64,000 bases of DNA from an uncultured Alphaproteobacteria bacterium (GCA_963775115.1 CAVZHP010000005.1:127817-191816), one strand, 5' to 3'; numbered from the stretch's first letter, positions 32,121 to 47,442 are shown. The notes: generated by a model not told the origin, from the letters alone. Translations and numbers: made by a program.

Positions 32121-32444
32121 ATGACCGATTTCAAAGACCGCGAGCGTGGCGAAGAAGCCCATTTTGCCCACGACCAGGACATGATGTTCCGCATCACCGC
32201 CCGCCGCAACCGCTTGCTGGGCGCCTGGGCGGCCGAACGCATGGGGCTCTCGGCGGCCGAGACCGAAGCCTATGCCAAGGCCGTGGTCCAGGCCGATTTC
32301 GAGGAAGCGGGCGACGAGGACGTCATCCGCAAGCTGATCGGCGATCTGACCTCCGCCGGGATCGAAACCGACGAGGGCGAGGTGCGCGCCGCGCTCGAAG
32401 CGAAAATGATCGAAGCCAAGCGCATGATTATGGGTAAGTCCTGA
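32121..32444 (+). CDS. DUF1476 / alphaproteobacterial ATP synthase inhibitor zeta subunit family
   Basis: FKDRERGEE..FAHD....F...ARRNRLLG.WAA. Confidence 0.85.
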   Translation: MTDFKDRERGEEAHFAHDQDMMFRITARRNRLLGAWAAERMGLSAAETEAYAKAVVQADFEEAGDEDVIRKLIGDLTSAGIETDEGEVRAALEAKMIEAKRMIMGKS

Positions 32445-32707: not shown

Positions 32708-33037
32708 ATGACCGACGCCCACAGCCGCATTGCCGGTATCGTCAATTCAAACGATGTAGTGCTGTTTATGAAAGGCACGCCGCTGTTTCCGCAGTGCGGC
32801 TTTTCCAGCAAGGCGATCGCCATCCTCGACCACCTCGGCGTCGGCTATGAAAGCGTCGATGTGCTGCAGGACATGGATGTCCGCCAGGGCATCAAGAGCT
32901 TCTCGGACTGGCCGACTATCCCGCAGCTGTATGTAAAGGGCGAATTTGTTGGCGGCAGCGACATCATGATGGAGATGTTCGAGGCGGGTGAGCTGCACCA
33001 GTTGATGGCCGACGCGGGAGTCGCTGCGGCGAGCTGA
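32708..33037 (+). CDS. grxD: Monothiol glutaredoxin Grx4
   Basis: [28 protein letters not shown]. Confidence 0.95.
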
Positions 33038-33409
33038 ACTGTCCCAAAACGGGGAATTCACGCATTCCGTTAGCTAACGAGTGGCGGTCTAACTGTGCTG
33101 GCGCGGGCTACCGGCCCGGCCTGGATTTCATAATTGCACGCGGACTGCCAGCCGAAAATTAGCGCGTATGGCCGGGTATCCCGCCAGCGCGCGAGGCCCT
33201 GTGCATCTGCTTGACGTGCAAACCGAAACTGCCCTGCGGGACTTATCCCCTTGGAAATTTGGGGCCGCATGACAATTCTCAATTACACTCCGCCCCCCTC
33301 CAAATACCCTTCGAATCGTTCGCAGTCGTGCGGACAGATGCGGCGATCTCGTGCCCTGCCGTGGGGTGTGGCTGTGCTTTCGCCATCGAATTAGCAACAG
33401 GAGTTAGAC

Positions 33410-34552
33410 ATGAAACTCAAGGCCATTCTCACCGCTACGGTATGCGCCGCTGGACTGACAGTCTCGGCTGCCGCGTTCGCCCAAGGGTCGAACGGAAACG
33501 ACAAGAACGACGACAACGAGGGCACCGTCATCGGCAGCCAGGGCACCAACAACATTGACGACGGCAATCAGTCCACCTCCGGCGCCATCAGCACCATCGA
33601 CGACGGCAACCTGACCGGCACCGGCGACATTGCCACCAGTGACGACGATATCAAGAACGACGACGGCAACCAGACCGGCACCGGCGACATCGCCACCAGT
33701 GACGACGACATCAAGAACGACGACGGCAACCAGACCGGCACAGGCGACATCGCCACCGCCTCTTACAAAAACGATGACGGCAATCAGGCCGGCGGCGACA
33801 TCGCCACCACTGACGACGATACCACCATCAAGAATGACGATGGCAACCAGGCCGCTGGCGACCTCGCGGTCAACGACGACGGCAATCAGGCCGGAGACGA
33901 CGTCACCACCATCAAGAATGACGACGGCAATGCGGCCGGCGACGACGTCAACACCTACAAGAACGACGACGGCAACCAGGCTGCCGGCAACATCAGCACC
34001 GCCAAGAACGGCGACGGCAACCAGGCTGGCGGCGACATCAGCACCGCCTCTTACAAGAACGACGACGGCAACCAGGCTGGCAACGACATCACCACCAGTG
34101 ACGACGACATCAAGAACGATGACGGCAATCTCGCCACTGGCGGCAGCATCACCACCAGTGACGACGACATCAAGAACGATGACGGCAATCTCGCCACCGG
34201 CGGCAGCATCACCACCACCGAGAACAAGAACGGCAGCGGCAACCTCGCCACTGGCGGCAGCATCACGGACGACGATGTTATTGCCACGCAGACTCTCAAG
34301 GCAGTGATCACCAACGGTGCCGCAGTCGGGACCTTCGCAGGCTTGGGTGCCTATAACAGCGGTAGCAACTCGGTCGAAGGCAATGCCTTCTCCGCCTATG
34401 CCGGCATCCTGACGCAGGCCTGGAACACCGGCATCAATGCCAATGTCCAGGCTGGCACCAACATCGCCGCGACCGGTGCGGTCAACTTCAACGGCGTCAA
34501 CAATCCGGCGCCTGCTGCGCCTGCTGCGCCTGCTGCGCCTGCCGCTCAGTAA
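33410..34552 (+). CDS. Secreted acidic DDGN-repeat protein with a C-terminal Fap-type repeat; putative amyloid/fibre major subunit
   Basis: Signal peptide; 12 exact DDGN plus 2 variant repeats; C-terminal GNAFSAYAGILTQAWNTGINANVQAGTNIAA. Confidence 0.7.
   Translation: MKLKAILTATVCAAGLTVSAAAFAQGSNGNDKNDDNEGTVIGSQGTNNIDDGNQSTSGAISTIDDGNLTGTGDIATSDDDIKNDDGNQTGTGDIATSDDDIKNDDGNQTGTGDIATASYKNDDGNQAGGDIATTDDDTTIKNDDGNQAAGDLAVNDDGNQAGDDVTTIKNDDGNAAGDDVNTYKNDDGNQAAGNISTAKNGDGNQAGGDISTASYKNDDGNQAGNDITTSDDDIKNDDGNLATGGSITTSDDDIKNDDGNLATGGSITTTENKNGSGNLATGGSITDDDVIATQTLKAVITNGAAVGTFAGLGAYNSGSNSVEGNAFSAYAGILTQAWNTGINANVQAGTNIAATGAVNFNGVNNPAPAAPAAPAAPAAQ
33617..34260 (+). repeat. Intragenic tandem repeats, including near-identical 60-bp units
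   Basis: GGCACCGGCGACAT..CCACCAGTGACGACGA.ATCAAGAACGACGACGGCAACCAGACC repeated; ACCACCAGTGACGACGACATCAAGAACGATGACGGCAATCTCGCCAC.GGCGGCAGCATC repeated. Confidence 0.9.
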
Positions 34553-34571
34553 TCCGCAGCGGCAAATGCCA

Positions 34572-34606
34572 TTGCTCCGGACCGGAACCGCTCCGGTCCG
34601 GAGCAA
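34572..34606 (+). terminator. Perfect 15-bp stem-loop after the repeat-protein gene (attenuator or mRNA stabiliser)
   Basis: TTGCTCCGGACCGGA-ACCGC-TCCGGTCCGGAGCAA; no strong U-tract. Confidence 0.7.
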
Positions 34607-34652
34607 CCTTTCCCAAGATTTCCTCATCAATAGCGGTCCCGGAGCGGGTAAC

Positions 34653-35090
34653 ATGTCTGCTTTCAACACTTCCCTGTCGATAGTCCTGGCGTGTGGCTGC
34701 ATGACCATTGCGGACTTGGCCATGGCCGTTGAACTGACGCCTCCCGAGGTGCCAGTCACCGAAGCGCCCGCCGAAGTGTCGGCCTCACCGGCAGCCTCGC
34801 AAGATCCGGCGCCAAAGCTCGAACCTGCGCTCGATTCTCCTGATGGAGCAGTGGTTCCGGATACGGAGCTTGTTCTGAACAGGGGCCGCGAAAAGCTTGT
34901 CGTGGCCAACCAGAGCATGACGGCAGTCACCGCCGGCAACGAACTCACCGGCGGCTACACCGCCGGGAATGTCGAAATTTCCGATAACGCGCTCGCGAAC
35001 TTCACCGGGTTCGGCAACATTCTCATCAATACCGGCGCGCAGGTGAGCTTGCAGTCCGGGATGAATGTGACGCTGAATCTCGGCGAATAA
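34653..35090 (+). CDS. Secreted FapB-like minor subunit / nucleator candidate
   Basis: Signal-like N-terminus; C-terminal GNVEISDNALANFTGFGNILINTGAQVSLQ resembles the Fap repeat. Confidence 0.6.
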   Translation: MSAFNTSLSIVLACGCMTIADLAMAVELTPPEVPVTEAPAEVSASPAASQDPAPKLEPALDSPDGAVVPDTELVLNRGREKLVVANQSMTAVTAGNELTGGYTAGNVEISDNALANFTGFGNILINTGAQVSLQSGMNVTLNLGE

Positions 35091-35099
35091 GATCGCACA

Positions 35100-35873
35100 A
35101 TGGCTTCCACACCCCGCCCGATCCAGCACCGCATGCCGCGAATTGCAGCAATTCTCGCAGGTGCTCTCGGCACCTTGGCGGCCCTTACCGCTCCGGCATC
35201 CGCCGAAGTTCGCATCGGCGGCGATCCGGGCGGTTATTACAGCGTGCCGGTGATGACTTGGTGGGACATTCCCTTCCGCAGCATCGTTCGCCAGCGTTAC
35301 GATTTCAGCTGCGGATCGGCGGCGGTCGCCACCCTATTGACCTTCCACTACGGCCAACGCACCGCCGAGAGCAATGCCTTCACGGCAATGTGGGAAAAGG
35401 GCGAACAGGCGACAATCCAGCAATTCGGCTTTTCCATGTTCGACATGAAGACCTACCTGAATGACATCGGCTATCGTGCAGAAGGTTTCAGGATGTCGAT
35501 CGCCCAGCTGCGCCAGTCGAAGCGGCCGGTAATCGCCATGATCGAGGTGCGCGGTTACAAGCATTTCGTGGTGGTGAAAGGCGTGCGCGACGACAAAGTC
35601 CTGACCGGCGATCCGGCACTCGGCCTCAAGGAATATGACATCGCGGATTTTGCCAAGGCGTGGAACGGCATTGGGCTGGCCATCCTCGACAGCCCTGGCA
35701 AGGTTGAGCCGCTATACAATCTCGCCAGTGACTGGGGCCCATGGTCGCGCGCACCGGTTGAGGAACAGAGCGGGCTTCAAGGTGCCGTTGGCGACCTCAC
35801 CACTTACCTGCCACCGGCCTATCAGATTACGCCGCAGCTCCTGCTCGATGTCCGGGTGGGGACGGTGAATTGA
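35100..35873 (+). CDS. C39 family peptidase, FapD-like
   Basis: RQRYDFSCGSAAVATLL, GFSMFDMK, YKHFVVVKG, DPALG; signal peptide; no ABC domain. Confidence 0.9.
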   Translation: MASTPRPIQHRMPRIAAILAGALGTLAALTAPASAEVRIGGDPGGYYSVPVMTWWDIPFRSIVRQRYDFSCGSAAVATLLTFHYGQRTAESNAFTAMWEKGEQATIQQFGFSMFDMKTYLNDIGYRAEGFRMSIAQLRQSKRPVIAMIEVRGYKHFVVVKGVRDDKVLTGDPALGLKEYDIADFAKAWNGIGLAILDSPGKVEPLYNLASDWGPWSRAPVEEQSGLQGAVGDLTTYLPPAYQITPQLLLDVRVGTVN

Positions 35874-35874
35874 C

Positions 35875-37242
35875 GTGGCGGCGCTGACATCATCGCTGGG
35901 ATTTGCCCTGGCGGCGGCGATTTCACCCAATTCCGCACTGTCCGAAGCCGATCGCCCGCCAAACGTCGAATCGACGGCAGCGATGGCCCGCCTTGAAGAC
36001 ATGCCTGAAGCCGAATTTGGCCAGGCTGCCTCCTCAGATGCGCCGGTGTCGCTGTTGGCGGATGCCGGCCTGCCCGATACACTTTACGCATCCGTCGATA
36101 CAGCGCCGAGCCTGGAGGGCGAACTCGCCGCACCAGTATCCCTGCTGGCGGATGCGGGGCTGCCCGAAGCGCTTTATGCCTCTGCGGATACAGAGGCTGA
36201 ACTGGCGCGCGAGGCTACCGCGCCAATATCGCTGCTTGCGGATGCCGGCCTGCCCGAAGCTCAGTATAGCTCCGCTGGCACAGAACCGGAGCTGGTGGTT
36301 GAAGCCACCGCGCCAATATCGCTGCTTGCGGATGCCGGCCTGCCCGAAGCTCAGTATAGCTCCGCTGGCACAGAACCGGAGCTGGTGGTTGAAGCCACCG
36401 CACCGGTCTCGCTGCTGGCGGATGCGGGGCTGCCCGAAGTGCAAATTGCCTCCACCGATAAATGGCGGGAGCAGGAGGACGAGACTGCCGCGTCGGCTTT
36501 GTCGCTGAGAGATTCCGGTCCGGTCGCATTCCGCGATGTTCGCGCGGAAGCGATACCGGTCCCGGCATTCGGCGCCGCTCCGCCGCCATTGCCCTGGAAC
36601 GACGACAGGTCGGACCGATCGCCGGTTGCCATTCCGCAAGTCGCCTTTGGTCGCAGGAACGAAACTCCGGCTCCCGAGCGTTCCGAGCCGGAAGCAAAGG
36701 CATCGGGCCCAGCCAGGCCAAAGGAATTGGCAGCATTCGTGCAGGACGACGAACAGTTCGGAGAACTCGTCGCGGTCGGAGACGAGGAACTGTCGGGCCA
36801 ACGCGGCGGTTTTGCTCTGGCGGGGATGAACATAAATTTCGGCGCTGAGCTGCGCAGCTATATCGACGGCGAAATGGTGCTGATGACGCGGCTCAGCTGG
36901 ATGGATGATTCGGTTACCAAGACCCAGCTGGTCTCGCCCGGTCTGACTCCGGCCATGGCATTGAACGGTGTGGTGTCGAGCGGCCAGATTCGCCTGCCCG
37001 CCGGGAATCTCGACACATTTCAGGCCAACAATGGCGGCACAGTGATCGCGCATGGAGTCGAACAGGGGCTGCGCAGCGTAATCATCAACACAGCTAACGG
37101 AGTACAACTGGCAACCGAAGCCGACGTCTCGCTGGACGTGGCGGGCTATTCCGCCTTCCGCGAACAGGTTATGCAGATGCGTATCAACGACGTCCTGGGC
37201 ACTGCGGTATCGAATGCGACGCGCGACGCACTTGGGACCTGA
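35875..37242 (+). CDS. FapE-like protein with five 30-aa N-terminal repeats
   Basis: VGDEELSGQRGGF motif; AP(V/I)SLLADAGLP repeats. Confidence 0.6.
   Translation: MAALTSSLGFALAAAISPNSALSEADRPPNVESTAAMARLEDMPEAEFGQAASSDAPVSLLADAGLPDTLYASVDTAPSLEGELAAPVSLLADAGLPEALYASADTEAELAREATAPISLLADAGLPEAQYSSAGTEPELVVEATAPISLLADAGLPEAQYSSAGTEPELVVEATAPVSLLADAGLPEVQIASTDKWREQEDETAASALSLRDSGPVAFRDVRAEAIPVPAFGAAPPPLPWNDDRSDRSPVAIPQVAFGRRNETPAPERSEPEAKASGPARPKELAAFVQDDEQFGELVAVGDEELSGQRGGFALAGMNINFGAELRSYIDGEMVLMTRLSWMDDSVTKTQLVSPGLTPAMALNGVVSSGQIRLPAGNLDTFQANNGGTVIAHGVEQGLRSVIINTANGVQLATEADVSLDVAGYSAFREQVMQMRINDVLGTAVSNATRDALGT
36217..36401 (+). repeat. Perfect 90-bp tandem duplication within the FapE-like gene
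   Basis: 36217-36306 is identical to 36307-36396. Confidence 0.9.
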
Positions 37243-37659
37243 AGTTCCGGTTAGCTAATTTTTCTGGACACAAGTCTCTGTATTTGCGCCAAAAATCCTG
37301 CTTCACCCGAGGTTTCGGATCAGTCCGGGACGCCTATCGAACGATAATCTTGTTGCAATCCTTAGTTGGATGGCATTGGATGGCACCGGTCGTCAATAAA
37401 GCGATTCGTCTGAGCAGCCCATGATTCCGGCCTGCCTGCGAATCCGAATTAACTTACAAGTTCAGAGCGAGTGGCTCAGTGGATTCACAACATCCGCTAA
37501 GCTATTGCTTGTGTTTGAGATTTTTATTACCACAAGCAGCGCTCAAAAGTTACTTCAAGACATCCAACATAAGGGTGCAGGTCGTCTATAATACTTTGTG
37601 GTTCGCAATTATTATTACAATGTGATGCCATTTTTAAGACAACCAGGGGTGAAGTGACA

Positions 37660-38382
37660 ATGTCGATGGTGTTCCCACATGAGCAGATCGTAAGAGGCTC
37701 GGGCGGATCGATGGTGCAGCTTGAGAAGGGCGCCTTGCTCTACGATCAGGACACTCCGGCCAATTGCTGGTACGAAATCGTGTCCGGCATCGTCAGGACC
37801 TGCCGCATACTAAGAGATGGACGACGTCAGGTCACCGGCTTCCATTTTCCTGGCGATGTCTTCGGATTCGATGGTCCCAACCACAAGACTTCGGCCGAAG
37901 CCGTCACCGATGGCGCCACGGTCCTCGACTATTCAGGCGGCGGAACGGCCGCGCAGCCTGCAATACGTGAAAGCGCCATTGTCGGCCTGCAGCGCGCGCT
38001 GGATTGCGCGGAGGGCAGCATCAGGCTGCTGGGACATCGCTCGGCGCCCGAACGGCTGGCTGCATTTCTGCTCATGCTGCGGTCGAAACTGGAACTGGGT
38101 TCGCATTTCGTAATGCCTATGCCGCGTACCGATATCGCCGACTTCCTGGGTCTGACCGTAGAAACCGTAAGCCGTACCCTGACAGATTTCGCCCGCAAGC
38201 GACTGATCGTATTCGAAACGCCCCAACAGCTGCTTGTCGAGGATTGGGCCAGATTGCGCGATGTTGCCGGCGACGATGAGGATAGCCTGGTGACCGCATC
38301 GTGCTATTCCCGGCGGCTTGAGTTGCTGTCACCTGACGGGAACAGGGCCGGACAGAAGATTCAATTAGAGCTGCAAGGCTAA
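37660..38382 (+). CDS. Crp/Fnr (FixK-like) transcriptional regulator
   Basis: GRRQVTGFHFPGD.FG, ERLAAFLL, MPRTDIADFLGLTVETVSR HTH; no N-terminal Cys cluster. Confidence 0.9.
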   Translation: MSMVFPHEQIVRGSGGSMVQLEKGALLYDQDTPANCWYEIVSGIVRTCRILRDGRRQVTGFHFPGDVFGFDGPNHKTSAEAVTDGATVLDYSGGGTAAQPAIRESAIVGLQRALDCAEGSIRLLGHRSAPERLAAFLLMLRSKLELGSHFVMPMPRTDIADFLGLTVETVSRTLTDFARKRLIVFETPQQLLVEDWARLRDVAGDDEDSLVTASCYSRRLELLSPDGNRAGQKIQLELQG

Positions 38383-38400
38383 GCACCGGGAGGATAGGCC

Positions 38401-40491
38401 ATGGTCAGCACTCAGGATGGCGGCATCGCCGCCTTCATAGCTTGTGCCTCGGCAATCGCAGGGCAGGCAACGCCGAACGACGAGTTGATCCACAAATTCG
38501 GGCTCGACTCGCCGGTCCCGCCGTTCGCGGATTCGGACCTGACCGCAGCTCCTTATGTGCTGCCGGAAGTCGAGATCGGACAAGGCTATGCATCCGCCAT
38601 GCCGGTTCCGATGTTTGCCGCTGCCGGCACGAAAAATACGCACTATCTGCCATCTGCGGCCGGAACGGACCTGGCGCCAGATTTCGCGCCTTTAGCCAAG
38701 CCGCTGACGCACCAGAGTCAGGCGAAAGCCCAGGCTTCGCAACCGGAAATCGAACCCAGCCTGAACTACGCCCCTGCCATTCCGGCCCCGCAGTTTGCCG
38801 ATTCCGGGCTGCTGGATCCGCTGGACGCACTTGTAGCAGACGTGCCAAGCCCGCTTTACGCTCCGGTGACGCCGGTTTTGCCGGTCATGGCAACCGGAAC
38901 GCCAGGCCCGATGGCGGCACTGCCCGATGCTCCCGAGCGCCAGGATTATGCGCCAGGCAAGCCTGTCTCGCTGTTTGCCGATGCCGGCTTGTCCGATATG
39001 CTTTATGCCCCCGCCGAAGCCACGGCGGGTTCCGGTGCCGAACCGGTATCTCCTCTCATGCCGCATGCGTCCGGCAACCTGATCGATGTTCGCGAAGCCA
39101 TTCCGGCACCAGCGCAGGGCAGCAGCTTCAAACTGCCCCTCCCCGTCCCGGCCCAGGCAGACGTCGGCATGGCCGAGCCTTCGGAGGACCAGGCAGCGGC
39201 ATCGCCAGGTCAGACCATGCCGCGAACAGATCCCGGACAGCAGGCGATCCTGGACCGGCTGAACCGGCTTGAGGAGCAACTGCAATCGCAAAGAGTGCAG
39301 TTGTCCGAGCAGGCCGGGATCATTTCCAGTCAGCAGAAAGAAATCGAGGCGTTGCGCCAGCAGGGGGCAAACGATGCCGCGCTTGCTGTTCGCGCCCGGG
39401 GCACCGGCAATATGGTTCAGCCGCTTTTTGGCATGCAGGCTGCGACAGCGCCCGCAACCTCCGCAGCACCTGCAGCGCTTGCGCCGGTAACCGCTTCAGG
39501 CAGGCCCGCAATGCCCCCGCAACCTGTTGGCGAAGCGCCGGCGGAAGCCGAGCCCAGGGTTGAGCGAGTTGTTACCGCCGTGCCCGAAGGCCTGGGCGTG
39601 CTGACGCCAAAAGGCCGCTTTGTCTACGATCCTTCATTCGAATACTCGCGGTCCTCGACCAACCGGCTGGTATTCCGGGGCTTCGAGCTGATCCCGGGCA
39701 TTCAGATCGGCGTAATCGAAGCAACCGATGCGGATCGCGACACGCTCGCGCACACGTCCACGCTGCGCTACGGACTGACCAACAGGCTGGAAATCGAAGC
39801 CAGAGTGCCGGTGTTGTACCGGCATGACAGGATCGAGGTTGTGCAACAGCGCGATCAGGGCATTGTCCGTTCGATCGAACTGAGCGAAGGCAACATAGGC
39901 GATGCTGAATTTGCCATCCGCTATCAACTTAACCGGCCAAAGGGCGCGCAACAGCCGATTTTCGTCGGCAGTGTCAGAGTCAAGAGCGACACCGGAAAAG
40001 GGCCCTTCGATGTCGGCTACGATACATTCGGGGTGGCCACAGGTCTGGCGACCGGTTCCGGATTCTGGGCGGTGCAGCCCGGACTGAACTTCCTGCTGCC
40101 TAGCGATCCTGCGGTGATCTATGGATCCGCGTCCTATGTCTATCATATCCCGCGGAACGTGAACCGCATCATTGGCGGCGCTTTCGTTGGCAGGGTCGAT
40201 CCGGGCGATGCGGTCAGCGCCAGTCTCGGTTTCGGTTTTGCCCTCAACCCCCGCTTCTCATTTTCGCTCGGCTACGGACACACTTATATTTTCCCGAGCA
40301 AACAAGAGATCGGCGGAACCTTGCAGCGCTCGAAGTCGCTTCAGGTCGGCAGTTTCAACTTCGGAATGTCCTATCGGCTCAGTCAGAAGCAGACGATGAA
40401 TGCCTCGTTCGAACTCGGGGCGACGTCGGATGCGCCGGACATGAGTTTTACACTTCGCTTCCCGTTCTCGTTTGGCGGCGGCGGCCGCTAG
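38401..40491 (+). CDS. FapF-like outer-membrane beta-barrel secretion channel with a long Pro/Ala-rich N-extension and coiled coil
   Basis: VPVLYR, IGDAEFAIRY, VRVKSDTGKGPF, TGSGFWAVQPG, DPAVIYGS, FALN, G.TSDAPD..F.L.FP follow the FapF motif order as recalled; coiled coil LDRLNRLEEQLQSQ. Confidence 0.85.
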   Translation: MVSTQDGGIAAFIACASAIAGQATPNDELIHKFGLDSPVPPFADSDLTAAPYVLPEVEIGQGYASAMPVPMFAAAGTKNTHYLPSAAGTDLAPDFAPLAKPLTHQSQAKAQASQPEIEPSLNYAPAIPAPQFADSGLLDPLDALVADVPSPLYAPVTPVLPVMATGTPGPMAALPDAPERQDYAPGKPVSLFADAGLSDMLYAPAEATAGSGAEPVSPLMPHASGNLIDVREAIPAPAQGSSFKLPLPVPAQADVGMAEPSEDQAAASPGQTMPRTDPGQQAILDRLNRLEEQLQSQRVQLSEQAGIISSQQKEIEALRQQGANDAALAVRARGTGNMVQPLFGMQAATAPATSAAPAALAPVTASGRPAMPPQPVGEAPAEAEPRVERVVTAVPEGLGVLTPKGRFVYDPSFEYSRSSTNRLVFRGFELIPGIQIGVIEATDADRDTLAHTSTLRYGLTNRLEIEARVPVLYRHDRIEVVQQRDQGIVRSIELSEGNIGDAEFAIRYQLNRPKGAQQPIFVGSVRVKSDTGKGPFDVGYDTFGVATGLATGSGFWAVQPGLNFLLPSDPAVIYGSASYVYHIPRNVNRIIGGAFVGRVDPGDAVSASLGFGFALNPRFSFSLGYGHTYIFPSKQEIGGTLQRSKSLQVGSFNFGMSYRLSQKQTMNASFELGATSDAPDMSFTLRFPFSFGGGGR

Positions 40492-40519: not shown

Positions 40520-41797
40520 TTACAGGCGGAAGGAAACGCCGGCGCTGAAGACCCAGGGATCGAGCTTGACCTTAGCTTCGACCGGAGCGCCACCGAAGGT
40601 GCCGCGGGTAGCGGGGCGCAGGAAGGCTTTCTTGACGTCGAAGAACAGCCCCCAGTTCTTGCCAACCATGACATCCGTTCCGGCTTCGAAGGCCAGTGCC
40701 AGGTCATTACTGACGCGCAAATTCTGGAACGCGCCATCCTTGGTGCTGAACACGATCATGTAGCTGGCGCCTGCGCCCACATAGGGACGAAAGCGGCCGG
40801 AAACCTTGGGATGATACTGTAGCGTGAACGCGGTCGGACCATAGCGGACGTCGCCCAGCTTCGGCAGCGCGCCAATGCTGCCGGCACCATAGACGCCGAT
40901 CTTGGGCGGCAAGCCGACGGTCGCGTTGACGGCAATGGTTTCTGTCAGGAAATAGCCGACCTGGAGAGTCGGGGTATGGTGCTCGAAGGTTGAAATGCCT
41001 TCGCCGGTCAGCGGCGCGCCTCCGACGACCATTTGCGCTTCGTCGCGCAGACGCAGGCTCGCCATGCCGAGCTTGACCGACCAGCGCTTGGTCGAATCGA
41101 GCTCGACGGATTCCGCTTCGTCGCTATCCTTGCCGAAATGCGCGGTCAGGCCCAGCTGAACAGTCAGCGGGTCGAGCACGGCGCGCGCGCGGACGTCGGC
41201 GAAACTGGTATAGGTGGCGTCGAGCGGAAGCTTGCCAGAAGCGCCGGTGTGATACCAAGCCTTGCGCACATCGGCGAAGATGCCCCAGCGCTTGTTGACC
41301 TTGTAATCGACGCCGGCGTGAACGTAGGGGCCATGCGCATTGGGGATGTTGAGCCCCACTGCGAGGCCATCGCGCTCCTGCGTCGTCAGCTGCAACTGGA
41401 TGCCACCGCCGACATAGGGCGAAAACTTGCCCTTGACCGGGTGAAAGCTGGCGCCAAGCGAGGCGAGCACGAATTCGTCGTCGCCAAGATTGGGCGTACC
41501 GGCCAACGATCCAGCGGGAATGTTGTTGGTTGTCGCCGGCGTAGAGAGCGATCCCTCGATGGCGAATTTATCGACCAGGTAATGACCCACCGTCACGACC
41601 TGGTGATAGGTCTCGCGGGTCTTGTAGGCAGCGGCAGGATCCTGAACGCTGTTGACGAACACTTCGCCCTTGTCGACCAGCTTGGTCCGGGCGGCAGCGA
41701 GGCGCACGAACGTGTCGCCTGCCTCTTGGGCTATGGCCGGGGTGCAAATCGAGGCACCAAGGCAAACGGCCAGAGCGTACAAGATGGTCTTCTGCAT
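40520..41797 (-). CDS. Tandem two-domain OmpW/AlkL-family outer-membrane protein
   Basis: Signal peptide; two OmpW units (KFSPYVGGG...WGIFADVRK...LDPLTVQLG and RFRPYVGAG...WGLFFDVKK...LDPWVFSAGVSFRL). Confidence 0.85.
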   Translation of the reverse strand: MQKTILYALAVCLGASICTPAIAQEAGDTFVRLAAARTKLVDKGEVFVNSVQDPAAAYKTRETYHQVVTVGHYLVDKFAIEGSLSTPATTNNIPAGSLAGTPNLGDDEFVLASLGASFHPVKGKFSPYVGGGIQLQLTTQERDGLAVGLNIPNAHGPYVHAGVDYKVNKRWGIFADVRKAWYHTGASGKLPLDATYTSFADVRARAVLDPLTVQLGLTAHFGKDSDEAESVELDSTKRWSVKLGMASLRLRDEAQMVVGGAPLTGEGISTFEHHTPTLQVGYFLTETIAVNATVGLPPKIGVYGAGSIGALPKLGDVRYGPTAFTLQYHPKVSGRFRPYVGAGASYMIVFSTKDGAFQNLRVSNDLALAFEAGTDVMVGKNWGLFFDVKKAFLRPATRGTFGGAPVEAKVKLDPWVFSAGVSFRL

Positions 41798-45343: not shown

Positions 45344-46942
45344 TCACTGGCCCGCCGACATCCGGCCAGGCAGGATTTCACTGTCCGGAAGCTGTATTCC
45401 GAGCTGCTTGAGCTGCAACAGTTCCGAACTGGCCTTAGCATCGGGCGCCAGCGGCTCGATTTGCTGTTTACCGCGATACTTTATCAAATCCTCGATCGGC
45501 ATCGGCGCGCCAATCTCGTAACCTTGGAGCAAATCGCAGCCGAGCAATTGCAGCAGGCGGACATGGTATTCATTTTCAACACCTTCGACCACAACCTTCA
45601 TGTCAAGGCTGTGACCGAAATTGATCATCGTGCGAATGATCTGCGTCGCCTGGCGCTTTTCGCCGACATTGCGCAGGAACGGCTTGTCGAGCTTGAGCGC
45701 ATCGAGCGAGAAGTGTTGCAGATAACTCAGCGAAGAATAGCCGGTTCCAAAATCGTCGAGGAACACCTGCACCCCGATGTCGCGCAGCCGGCTTATCGCG
45801 ATATGCGCCCGCTCCAGGTTTGAGATCAGCACGCCTTCGGTGATCTCGAGGATCAGCAGCTCGGGCGCGATCCGCGCGGCGAACAGGCGGTCAAACAGGC
45901 GGTGGACGAATTCGGGATGCTTGAAGTAGACCGGCGAGATGTTCACCGCCACGCCAACGTCGCCGAGCAGCTTGATAGTGTCGAACGCGCAGTCGAGCGT
46001 CCATTCGGTGAGGTCCTCGATGTGCCCGCTTTCTTCGGCAATCGGGATCAGCGTCGACGGCGAAATGTCGCCAAGGTCGGTCGACTTCCAGCGCAGCAGC
46101 AATTCAATGCTTGACATCTTGCCGCTGCGGGCATCGACAAGCGGCTGATAAACCAATGCAAGTTCGCTCTTCAAGGCCGACTGGCCAAGCGCCACGCGGA
46201 TCGAGCTTTCCATTGTCTGCCGGCCATCGAGTTGGTCGTCGAAGATCTGGAAGGCACCGCGCTGCGAGCCCTTGGCGGCATACATGGCGAAGTCCGCGCG
46301 GCGAAGCAGCACGTCCGCGCCGTCGATCCGCGGACTGCCGAGCGCAATGCCTACCGAAGCGCCGACATTGACCAGCTTGTCCTCGATCTGCAGCGGATCG
46401 CTCAACGCCTCAACGATTTCCTGGCCGATCGTCTCCAGCGTGCGCTGCGGATCGATCGGCAGGATCGCGGCAAACTCGTCACCGCCGAGGCGGGCGAAGG
46501 CAATCGCGTCTCCGATCACCGGCGCACATCGGCGTGCGACTTCGATCAGCACCTGGTCCCCGGCACGGTGACCCATGGTGTCGTTGATGTCCTTGAACTT
46601 GTCGAGATCGAAAAACAGCACCGCGATCTGCTCGATATCTTCCTCGACGACCTTGGCGAAGGCATGGTTGAAGGCGATGCGGTTGAGCAGGCCGGTCAGG
46701 GGATCGATATTCGCCTGGCGGTGAAGTTCCTTACGGACGAATTGCAGCTCGACATGCTCGAGCGTCATGCGGCGGTGCTGGTTGACCGCGAAGGACATTG
46801 CCAGCAGGCTGACCAGGCCCGCCGCCGCCGCCGCGCCCGGCGTGAGCGGTAACAGGCCCACACCCGCCGCACCAAGATAGGCCGGAGCGGTTGAGGCAGC
46901 AGCACCCTGAATCCAGGGCGTAAGGCTTGAGCGCAGGGTCAC
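45344..46942 (-). CDS. Membrane-anchored GGDEF-EAL protein
   Basis: RLGGDEF; IELLLRW (EAL variant); DDFGTGYSSL; GTG start overlaps the upstream TGA. Confidence 0.9.
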   Translation of the reverse strand: MTLRSSLTPWIQGAAASTAPAYLGAAGVGLLPLTPGAAAAAGLVSLLAMSFAVNQHRRMTLEHVELQFVRKELHRQANIDPLTGLLNRIAFNHAFAKVVEEDIEQIAVLFFDLDKFKDINDTMGHRAGDQVLIEVARRCAPVIGDAIAFARLGGDEFAAILPIDPQRTLETIGQEIVEALSDPLQIEDKLVNVGASVGIALGSPRIDGADVLLRRADFAMYAAKGSQRGAFQIFDDQLDGRQTMESSIRVALGQSALKSELALVYQPLVDARSGKMSSIELLLRWKSTDLGDISPSTLIPIAEESGHIEDLTEWTLDCAFDTIKLLGDVGVAVNISPVYFKHPEFVHRLFDRLFAARIAPELLILEITEGVLISNLERAHIAISRLRDIGVQVFLDDFGTGYSSLSYLQHFSLDALKLDKPFLRNVGEKRQATQIIRTMINFGHSLDMKVVVEGVENEYHVRLLQLLGCDLLQGYEIGAPMPIEDLIKYRGKQQIEPLAPDAKASSELLQLKQLGIQLPDSEILPGRMSAGQ

Positions 46943-47442
46943 TTGCCTATCCGATCCCTGGCCAGGAGCGCCCGCGCCTGATCGTGGAGCCGCTGCTCGA
47001 CCGTAGCCATCTCGCCGTCGATCGATCCGACGATTGCCTGCTGCTTGAGGTGCAGCGCCATACGCGCCTTGAGGATCGGCAGGTTGATCGGTTTGACGAT
47101 ATAGTCGTTCGCGCCAGCCTGCAGCGCCTGGATGACCGAGCTGTCCTCGCCGAGCGCGGTGCACATGATCACCGGCAGGCGAACGCTGTCATAGATCTCG
47201 CGGATCGCGACCAGGGTTTCGAGCCCGGTCAGTTCGGGCATCATCCAGTCGAGCAGCACCAGATCGGGCTTGCTGACAGAGATGATCGAGAGCGCCTTGC
47301 GGCCACTTTCGGCGACTACGGGTACATAGCCGCCGCTGGTCAGCGCGCGCTGGAGCAGAACGCAGTTGTCCTCGATATCGTCGACGATAAGGATCGTGCG
47401 GCGGCTGTCGGCCGGGCGAAGCGGGAGGATCGGCGCGTTCAT
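46939..47442 (-). CDS. Response regulator (REC plus short helical tail)
   Basis: ILIVDD, LLDWMMP, GANDYIVKP. Confidence 0.9.
   Translation of the reverse strand: MNAPILPLRPADSRRTILIVDDIEDNCVLLQRALTSGGYVPVVAESGRKALSIISVSKPDLVLLDWMMPELTGLETLVAIREIYDSVRLPVIMCTALGEDSSVIQALQAGANDYIVKPINLPILKARMALHLKQQAIVGSIDGEMATVEQRLHDQARALLARDRIGK

Follow-up and report, generated by a model that had tools for sequence, protein, structure and literature searches.

A locus of six co-directional open reading frames (ORFs) located between positions 33410 and 40491 of a 64,000-nucleotide stretch of DNA from an uncultured Alphaproteobacteria bacterium (GCA_963775115.1, CAVZHP010000005.1:127817-191816; the whole stretch is referred to as the window) is, as judged from sequence comparison, a genuine yet divergent relative of the Fap amyloid export system of Pseudomonas, since its peptidase, its FapE-like protein and its outer membrane (OM) pore are all related to Fap components. 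The locus should be regarded as a member of a distinct sister clade of Fap, coding for a six-gene OM secretion and assembly system, an assignment to which a probability of about 0.7 is given. Its two secreted subunits are treated as belonging to a family different from that of FapB and FapC, and would fill the roles of FapC and FapB, respectively. A preliminary description of the same DNA had placed all six ORFs correctly, as confirmed by translation of the window, and had proposed a Fap locus. This view holds for three of the parts, with a strong relationship for the peptidase (D) and the pore (F) and a distant one for the FapE-like protein (E), but does not extend to Fap proper, as indicated by scores below the equivalog cut-offs, the separate clade formed by F and the lack of matches to the FapA, FapB, FapC and FapE models. 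The label "functional amyloid" applies to the locus by analogy only, and both the polymer or amyloid character of its product and the targets of its peptidase are inferred.

The homology of the machinery to Fap may be graded as solid for D and F on the basis of the sequence comparisons. Gene D (35100..35873, plus strand, as all genes of the locus) codes for a stand-alone periplasmic C39 cysteine peptidase of 257 amino acids with a Sec signal peptide, which is recognised by the Pfam model Peptidase_C39 at 6e-19 and by the NCBIfam model C39_FapD at 3.4e-44 (151 bits, compared to an equivalog cut-off of 330). The protein is 39% identical to Pseudomonas FapD, and the catalytic residues Q65, C71, H155 and D171 are intact and align with the respective motifs of that enzyme. 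The FapF-like OM channel F (38401..40491, 696 amino acids) was identified by its NCBIfam and PDB matches and its ribosome-binding site. It matches the NCBIfam FapF model at 2.5e-43 over profile positions 27-420 of 420 (148 bits, compared to an equivalog cut-off of 700), its residues 402-691 align with the FapF structure 5O67 at 5.3e-37, and a blastp comparison with Pseudomonas FapF yields 29.7% identity over 306 residues. The protein consists of an N-terminal extension (residues 1-279; 38401-39237), a coiled coil (about residues 280-325; ~39238-39375) and a region homologous to the 12-strand barrel (39604-40473). The third related component, E (35875..37242, 455 amino acids), was characterised by hhalign comparison, orthologue alignment, AlphaFold 2 (AF2) modelling and its repeats, and is composed of a signal peptide, a lineage-specific pro-region, the leader motif DEELSGQRGG/F, a beta-rich domain and a long C-terminal helix (AF2 model with pLDDT 78 and pTM 0.60). 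The NCBIfam FapE model does not match this protein or any other in the genome, and a Foldseek search of its domain against the PDB gave no match at E <= 0.001, with TM scores of ~0.1-0.2. A comparison of 76 E orthologues with 14 canonical FapE sequences gave an hhalign probability of 94% (E 1e-7), and both groups have the consensus D-EL-x3-RG-x-[FY]-x3-G-x-[IV]-x-FG in common. The order of genes given in the preliminary description (repeat subunit, small protein, C39 peptidase, FapE-like protein, OM barrel) was recovered together with the respective domains. The FapD-like nature of the stand-alone peptidase, the correspondence of the barrel to FapF along its whole length and the FapE-like protein with its DEELSGQRGGF motif were likewise borne out, and so were the alphaproteobacterial host, as the best relatives of F are found in Sphingomonadales, and the missing FapA, whose model has no match in either the locus or the genome.

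A view on the relatives of F shows that the locus is part of a large group separate from canonical Fap. The FapF model was searched against 401 Pseudomonadota genomes, and FapA-F of Pseudomonas (locus L022) were used as queries on the fetched loci. The matches fall into three tiers, consisting of Pseudomonas at ~760 bits, other genomes at 355-392 bits, and a low tier at ~100-180 bits which includes the window. The middle tier represents canonical fapABCDEF or fapBCDEF operons, and a tree of the F proteins separates F of the window and 87 other low-tier sequences (altogether 88 alphaproteobacterial proteins) from 13 canonical FapF with a support of 1.0. More than 1662 homologues of F were found at E <= 1e-5, the closest of which occur in Sphingomonas, Sphingopyxis, Sphingomicrobium and Croceibacterium with 60-74% identity and are annotated only as "transporter" or "hypothetical". 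A scan for such loci, using one genome per species, returned at least 532 loci, and the modules of the best 80 were mapped by five profiles. Nearly all of these 80 belong to the Sphingomonadales and Caulobacterales, including Hyphomonadaceae, and about 70 of them have kept the module of long subunit, small subunit, D and E together with crp-F. In their usual layout, the long subunit, the small subunit, D and E are encoded in one operon and F is adjacent to it, often in divergent orientation. The arrangement of the window with all six genes on one strand is also present in loci from Croceibacterium and Brevundimonas (L030, L081 and L097). The system comprises six genes in the Sphingomonadales, and the crp gene is missing from many of the caulobacterial loci.

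Canonical Fap has previously been reported from Beta-, Gamma- and Deltaproteobacteria only, in a survey whose FapD and FapF models also returned 96% and 69% "false positives", respectively, belonging to larger families (Dueholm 2013, PMC3792158). The clade containing the window is evidently part of these "false positives". Complete canonical fapABCDEF operons were encountered in two Sphingomonadaceae genomes (L023, G180:C1:1418000-1432000; L024, G228:C1:795000-809000), so canonical Fap does occur in this family. FapB, FapC and FapE of L023 are recognised by the curated models, and a fapA gene was found by jackhmmer. These operons derive from the same bacterial family as the window, and their D, E and F components form machinery of the same type, but their FapF proteins reach 355-373 bits compared to 148 bits here, and cluster with those of beta- and gammaproteobacterial Fap. 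One contig (G083:C11) carries a canonical fapABCDEF operon and, ~90 kb apart, a locus of the sister clade with small subunit, D, E and F (L025 and L026). Since both kinds are present in this genome, they should be regarded as paralogous systems which are able to coexist. In a further canonical locus (L115, G167:C78:2000-13000), the fapB-C-D-E set is duplicated in tandem ahead of only one fapF gene. Among the papers searched, none was found to link FapF to the sphingomonad or caulobacterial genera considered.

The secreted subunits of the locus are related to each other by one common C-terminal core of about 70 residues, referred to as S-core (hhalign probability 97%, E 1e-10; also detected by jackhmmer). 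The major or "long" subunit (33410..34552, 380 amino acids), as described by translation, its repeats and the comparison of its C-terminal module, contains 14 acidic NDDGN-type units behind a classical signal peptide, has a net charge of -47 in its mature form, and ends with an S-core of ~70 residues (ATQTLKAV...GNAFSAYAGILTQAWNTGINANVQAGTNIAATGAVNF) and a PAA tail. Its gene consists in part of tandem units of 45 and 60 bp, which are up to 96% identical. The minor or "small" subunit (34653..35090, 145 amino acids), as described by translation, start-site inspection, orthologue alignment and AF2 modelling, most likely starts with the ATG at 34653, which follows a GGAG sequence 9 nucleotides upstream, and not at 34437. 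It contains a signal peptide, a linker, the leader-like sequence TELVLNRGRE and an S-core of ~63 residues (...DNALANFTGFGNILINTGAQVSLQSGMNVTLNLGE). The consensus of the S-core reads ..V..Q.L.A...GN....G....S..AF..F.G.GN...NTG.....Q...N..IN. A search of 1.84 billion representative proteins with its profile gave 956 clusters at E <= 1e-3, of which 367 remain at E <= 1e-10. In each of the best 150 of the 956 clusters the S-core is a single stretch, which is nearly always C-terminal in proteins of ~110-190 amino acids. The 14 acidic NDDGN units are specific to the window; the N-terminal regions of the long subunits in the relatives are hypervariable, polar, acidic and rich in N, S and D, with a median net charge of -11 and extremes down to -61. 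An S-core-like segment inside E (INTA/INTG) was also considered and is not claimed, because nothing but the leader motif was aligned when the profiles were compared.

Directly behind the major-subunit gene lies a GC-rich stem-loop of 15 bp (34572..34606, plus strand), as defined by folding and conservation. The 100 nucleotides containing it (34553-34652) fold at -44.5 kcal/mol with a z-score of -4.4. In the related loci, the 90 nucleotides downstream of 85% of 68 long-subunit genes show z-scores below -2, compared to 14% after the small-subunit genes, and the hairpins of several relatives are followed by U-tracts. The element probably represents an intra-operon attenuator or a stabiliser of the mRNA which would raise the level of the major subunit above that of the accessory proteins, and a conserved stem-loop at this position fits the expectation for a structural polymer in which one subunit is abundant.

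The motifs preceding the mature parts of several components suggest what the peptidase of the system may cut, namely E and most of the small subunits. Double-glycine leaders cleaved by C39 peptidases follow the pattern EL-x3-x-GG, and the combination of a helix and a GG motif is present in E (DEELSGQRGG/F). The sequence ELxxxRGGF is nearly universal among the 76 E orthologues, and a strict [ED][LM]-x2-4-x-GG motif occurs in 42 of 74 small-subunit orthologues, most of the sphingomonad ones carrying ELxxxRGG just before the core; only one of 70 long subunits has a GG-type motif. A related but looser form, L-x2-4-R[GA]x[GA], is located in the linker behind the coiled coil of 47 out of 63 F proteins and is represented by LAVRARGTG in the window. 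MRGRY and MRGTF, which resemble canonical FapE, occur in the linkers of both canonical FapF proteins from sphingomonads. When the profiles of the small subunits and E are compared, the best alignment coincides exactly with the leader motif (equalled by 2 of 100 shuffles), and the AF2 models contain a short helix directly ahead of RGG in E and of RGRE in the small subunit (residues 10-16 in the latter). Cleavage at the leader motif may therefore be inferred from these sequences, and it would take place in the periplasm, because the motif is internal and follows a Sec signal and a pro-region. In this respect the system differs from the PCAT-type exporters (PCAT1, PDB 4RY2), which are similar in the C39 fold and catalytic residues (PDB match at 2e-7 to 2e-6) as well as in the helix preceding EL-x3-x-GG in their substrates. 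The peptidase of the window carries a signal peptide and is not fused to an ATP-binding cassette (ABC) transporter, and no ABC transporter was found within the conserved module. In Pseudomonas, FapD activity is required for secretion and the N-terminus of FapE is processed; the Fap proteins are devoid of canonical cleavage sites, FapE loses ~70 N-terminal residues, and FapF is possibly cut in its linker (Rouse 2017, PMC5557850). A preprint of 2026 still says no more of FapD than that it is "involved in precursor processing".

Compared with Pseudomonas Fap (5O65/5O67/5O68), the locus is similar in having a periplasmic C39 peptidase which stands alone and has kept its catalytic site intact, an OM protein whose FapF-type barrel is joined by a linker to an N-terminal coiled coil, a FapE-like protein with a D-EL-x3-RG motif, a major subunit of variable length next to a small minor one, and a gene order of subunits, D, E and F. 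However, the three repeats of FapB and FapC are replaced by a single C-terminal module of another family, the major subunit precedes the minor one, FapA is missing and a dedicated regulator of the Crp/FixK type is present. Moreover, E and most of the small subunits of the sister clade contain a canonical GG, compared to RGK or RGR in Pseudomonas FapE, F falls into a separate clade, and the window adds repeats to E and an N-terminal extension to F.

The regulator gene (37654..38382, plus strand) is located immediately upstream of F and was assigned by Pfam and NCBIfam to the Crp/Fnr family. Its product is FixK-like and contains a cyclic nucleoside monophosphate (cNMP)-binding domain and a Crp helix-turn-helix, both above the Pfam cut-offs, and reaches 142 bits with the FixK model, compared to a cut-off of 300; an Fnr-type N-terminal Cys cluster is not found in its sequence. 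The gene had been taken for an insertion before fapF. However, most of the 80 related loci have a crp homologue beside F, and in most of those from Sphingomonadales and Brevundimonas it directly precedes F, which identifies it as a conserved component of the system with a presumed regulatory role. The preceding intergenic region of 411 bp (37243..37653), recognised by its composition, is richer in AT than its surroundings (GC ~0.53-0.56) and presumably holds a promoter and regulatory sites. An FNR/FixK box (TTGA-N6-TCAA) does not occur within the window. The intergenic region begins with the perfect palindrome TTAGCTAA, which has five copies in the 4.05-Mb genome, two of which (33070-33077 and 37251-37258) flank the operon of subunits, D and E in the common context TTCCG(G)TTAGCTAA. 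A conserved operator function of TTAGCTAA is ruled out by its absence from all 80 related loci, so that it would have to be lineage-specific if it were an operator.

E and F of the window are further connected by a repeat of the type PVSL[LF]ADAGL. The pro-region of E comprises ~280 residues with five 30-residue "PVSLLADAGLPEALYA" repeats (36049-36439), corresponding to 4.3 tandem copies of 90 bp in the gene, and the extension of ~270 residues in F, whose orthologues measure 420-480 amino acids compared to 696 here, holds three copies of the motif, one of them strict and the other two degenerate. As read from the alignment, the F copy is ~80% identical in DNA to the E repeats over ~50 nucleotides. 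The extension is probably translated, because a GGAGGA ribosome-binding site precedes the ATG at 38401 by 8 nucleotides. The repeat extensions previously ascribed to three components are tandem repeats in the case of the major subunit and E, but F has an N-terminal extension with few copies of the E motif instead. Outside of these two genes the motif was not found in the genome, and the E and F proteins of the relatives lack it, which makes it lineage-specific. Both segments would be periplasmic, the one in E lying upstream of the putative cut and the one in F upstream of the coiled coil. A docking function common to the two is a guess, and any function ascribed to the acidic repeats or to the repeat common to E and F is presumptive.

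Taken together, a mechanism may be proposed in which all five structural proteins would reach the periplasm by Sec and the two paralogous subunits would be exported by a trimeric FapF-type barrel with coiled coil, linker and 12 strands. The highly expressed major subunit would present a variable acidic low-complexity region, represented here by the NDDGN units, on a single C-terminal S-core, and the minor subunit would consist of little beyond this module. The periplasmic FapD-type peptidase is predicted to recognise a helix plus "EL-x3-RG(G)" and to remove the pro-region of the FapE-like protein as well as that of the small subunit in most relatives, possibly also acting on the F linker. This removal would license secretion or nucleation, after which the extracellular S-cores may associate with one module per subunit to form a surface fibre or matrix polymer decorated by acidic repeats. 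The adjacent Crp/FixK-type regulator would control F and perhaps the whole system.

Several results weigh against this interpretation. The Fap repeats noted in the subunits by the preliminary description were not substantiated, since the comparison of the S-core with 26 canonical Fap repeats is not significant (hhalign P 0.017-0.057, with 4-6 of 100 column shuffles equalling the score) and the alignment is confined to ~12-16 columns around GNAFS..G. Furthermore, the S-core profile matches no PDB sequence, including any FapC chain, at E <= 10, and a Foldseek search with the AF2 model of the small subunit gave no fold match. Because of these results, the subunits are treated as a separate family and not as Fap repeats. 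The AF2 model of the small subunit as a monomer reaches only moderate confidence and is irregular for the most part, which renders the formation of fibres or amyloid conjectural. The homology of E to FapE is carried mainly by ~35 N-terminal residues. In the small subunit of the window, RGG is replaced by RGRE, similar to the GRQ found in Brevundimonas, and the protein may therefore be cut differently or not at all. Finally, the signal peptides of E (MAALTSSLGFALAAAISPNSALS, 35875-35950) and F (MVSTQDGGIAAFIACASAIAGQA, 38401-38475) are devoid of a positively charged n-region. Such an uncharged n-region is unusual for Sec substrates, and neither reading frame offers a better upstream start.

Among the other explanations, the locus might be a bona fide, diverged member of Fap itself (fapBCDEF without fapA), whose subunits would be orthologues of FapC and FapB forming a Fap-type amyloid. 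The common order of subunits, D, E and F, the homology of the latter three to their Fap counterparts, the N/Q/G-rich cores of the subunits and the resemblance of the GNAFS..G stretch to the start of a Fap repeat are in line with this, and the absence of FapA weighs little, since FapA is often missing from accepted canonical operons (Dueholm 2013, PMC3792158). Nevertheless, canonical membership is rejected by the curated hidden Markov models, as applied to the proteins and the whole genome, and by the F tree. The models for FapA, FapB, FapC and FapE have no match in the locus (E <= 1) or the genome (E <= 10), yet detect a canonical operon from the same bacterial family, and the separate clade of F, the occurrence of both kinds in one genome and the presence of one module per subunit instead of three repeats and the lack of a significant hhalign similarity render this explanation very improbable. 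It is less far-fetched, but still unlikely, that the system secretes and displays a surface protein which does not polymerise. The S-core would then serve as targeting or anchoring signal for the pore, the NDDGN region as a monomeric passenger binding cations or surfaces, and the small subunit and E as adaptors. This would agree with an S-core which is single in all and C-terminal in nearly all of the best 150 of 956 clusters, and with hypervariable, acidic low-complexity N-terminal regions which show no detectable similarity to amyloid repeats. However, it is difficult to see a passenger carrier in a second subunit which has hardly anything besides the core, an attenuator-type stem-loop behind the major gene is typical of polymer operons, and fibre subunits are what the closest machinery characterised so far exports.

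The small protein could also be viewed as a double-glycine precursor from which the C39 peptidase would produce a peptide of ~63 residues rich in G, N, T and A, to be released via the barrel. The maturation of class II bacteriocins and microcins is characterised by C39 peptidases and "ELxxxGG" leaders. The predicted mature product is indeed short and rich in Gly, Asn and Ala, but the conserved module lacks an ABC transporter and an immunity gene, the precursors carry Sec signal peptides and meet a periplasmic peptidase, the same motif is found on the folded E domain of 170 residues, and the small protein of the window is without the second Gly, which leaves such a microcin-like export with a very slight chance of being correct. 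Even slighter is the chance that the locus belongs to the putative Fil pilus systems of Acinetobacter, which also pair a C39 peptidase (FilB) with a FapF-like barrel (FilC) and, in the vaccine-oriented papers found on them, are functionally uncharacterised and treated without a mechanism. The NCBIfam models of FilB and FilC match D at 7e-33 and F at 6.5e-19, respectively, but the scores of 114 bits (cut-off 475) and 68.5 bits (cut-off 630) are both lower than those obtained with the Fap models, and no other Fil model matches a protein of the locus at E <= 1.

The assignment to a sister clade of Fap may be extended to a joint reading, which is put forward tentatively and at somewhat less than even odds. 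The helix motif hydrophobic-x3-RG(G) is conserved in the FapE-like protein and in the small subunit, has a looser counterpart in the FapF-like linker, and recurs as ELAxMRGRY both in canonical FapE and in the linkers of the two canonical FapF proteins from sphingomonads. It would represent the recognition and cleavage site of periplasmic FapD-type C39 peptidases, and the clade would reveal the targets of FapD. It would further define a second widespread class of Fap-type fibres with one stacking module per subunit and an acidic low-complexity brush, in which the pro-region of E and the extension of F of the window would carry PVSL[LF]ADAGL as a co-evolved docking repeat.

Within its genus, the locus is accessory, because a homologue of F is present in only 2 of 25 genomes and the locus is absent at the corresponding position in all five same-genus genomes compared. 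In these five, a conserved block of leuD-like, ADH, zeta-inhibitor and glutaredoxin genes ends at 33037, and in three of them the next gene after glutaredoxin is a relative of the window ORF at 45344-47164 with 36-38% identity. Since synteny breaks between 33037 and 33410 and possibly resumes only at ~45344, the far boundary being loosely set by a gene of such low identity, about 12 kb may be accessory, containing the Fap-like locus, a double OmpW gene, an aminotransferase gene and one kinase gene. The double OmpW gene (40520-41797, minus strand) converges on the end of the F gene and codes for a protein of 425 amino acids with two OMP beta-barrel or OmpW-type stretches (Pfam OmpW 3.8e-45), which is not part of the conserved Fap-like module of the relatives. 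Upstream of the locus, the gene for the ATPase inhibitor subunit zeta is found at 32121-32444 (Pfam PF07345, 3.6e-40); this family is typical of Alphaproteobacteria, consistent with the taxonomic setting.

The sister system of Fap is real, widespread and uncharacterised. Many of the former "false-positive" matches to FapD and FapF form a coherent system across the Sphingomonadales and Caulobacterales, common bacteria of soil, water and biofilms, with a subunit family and a regulator peculiar to it and a hairpin for expression control. Because E and most of the small subunits carry a textbook double-glycine motif, this system offers a direct test of the targets of FapD-type peptidases, a question left open in 2017 and apparently still so in the preprint of 2026. 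The extremely acidic repeat subunit of the window suggests a cation-binding or hydrating matrix fibre, which would be relevant to the formation of biofilms and aggregates.

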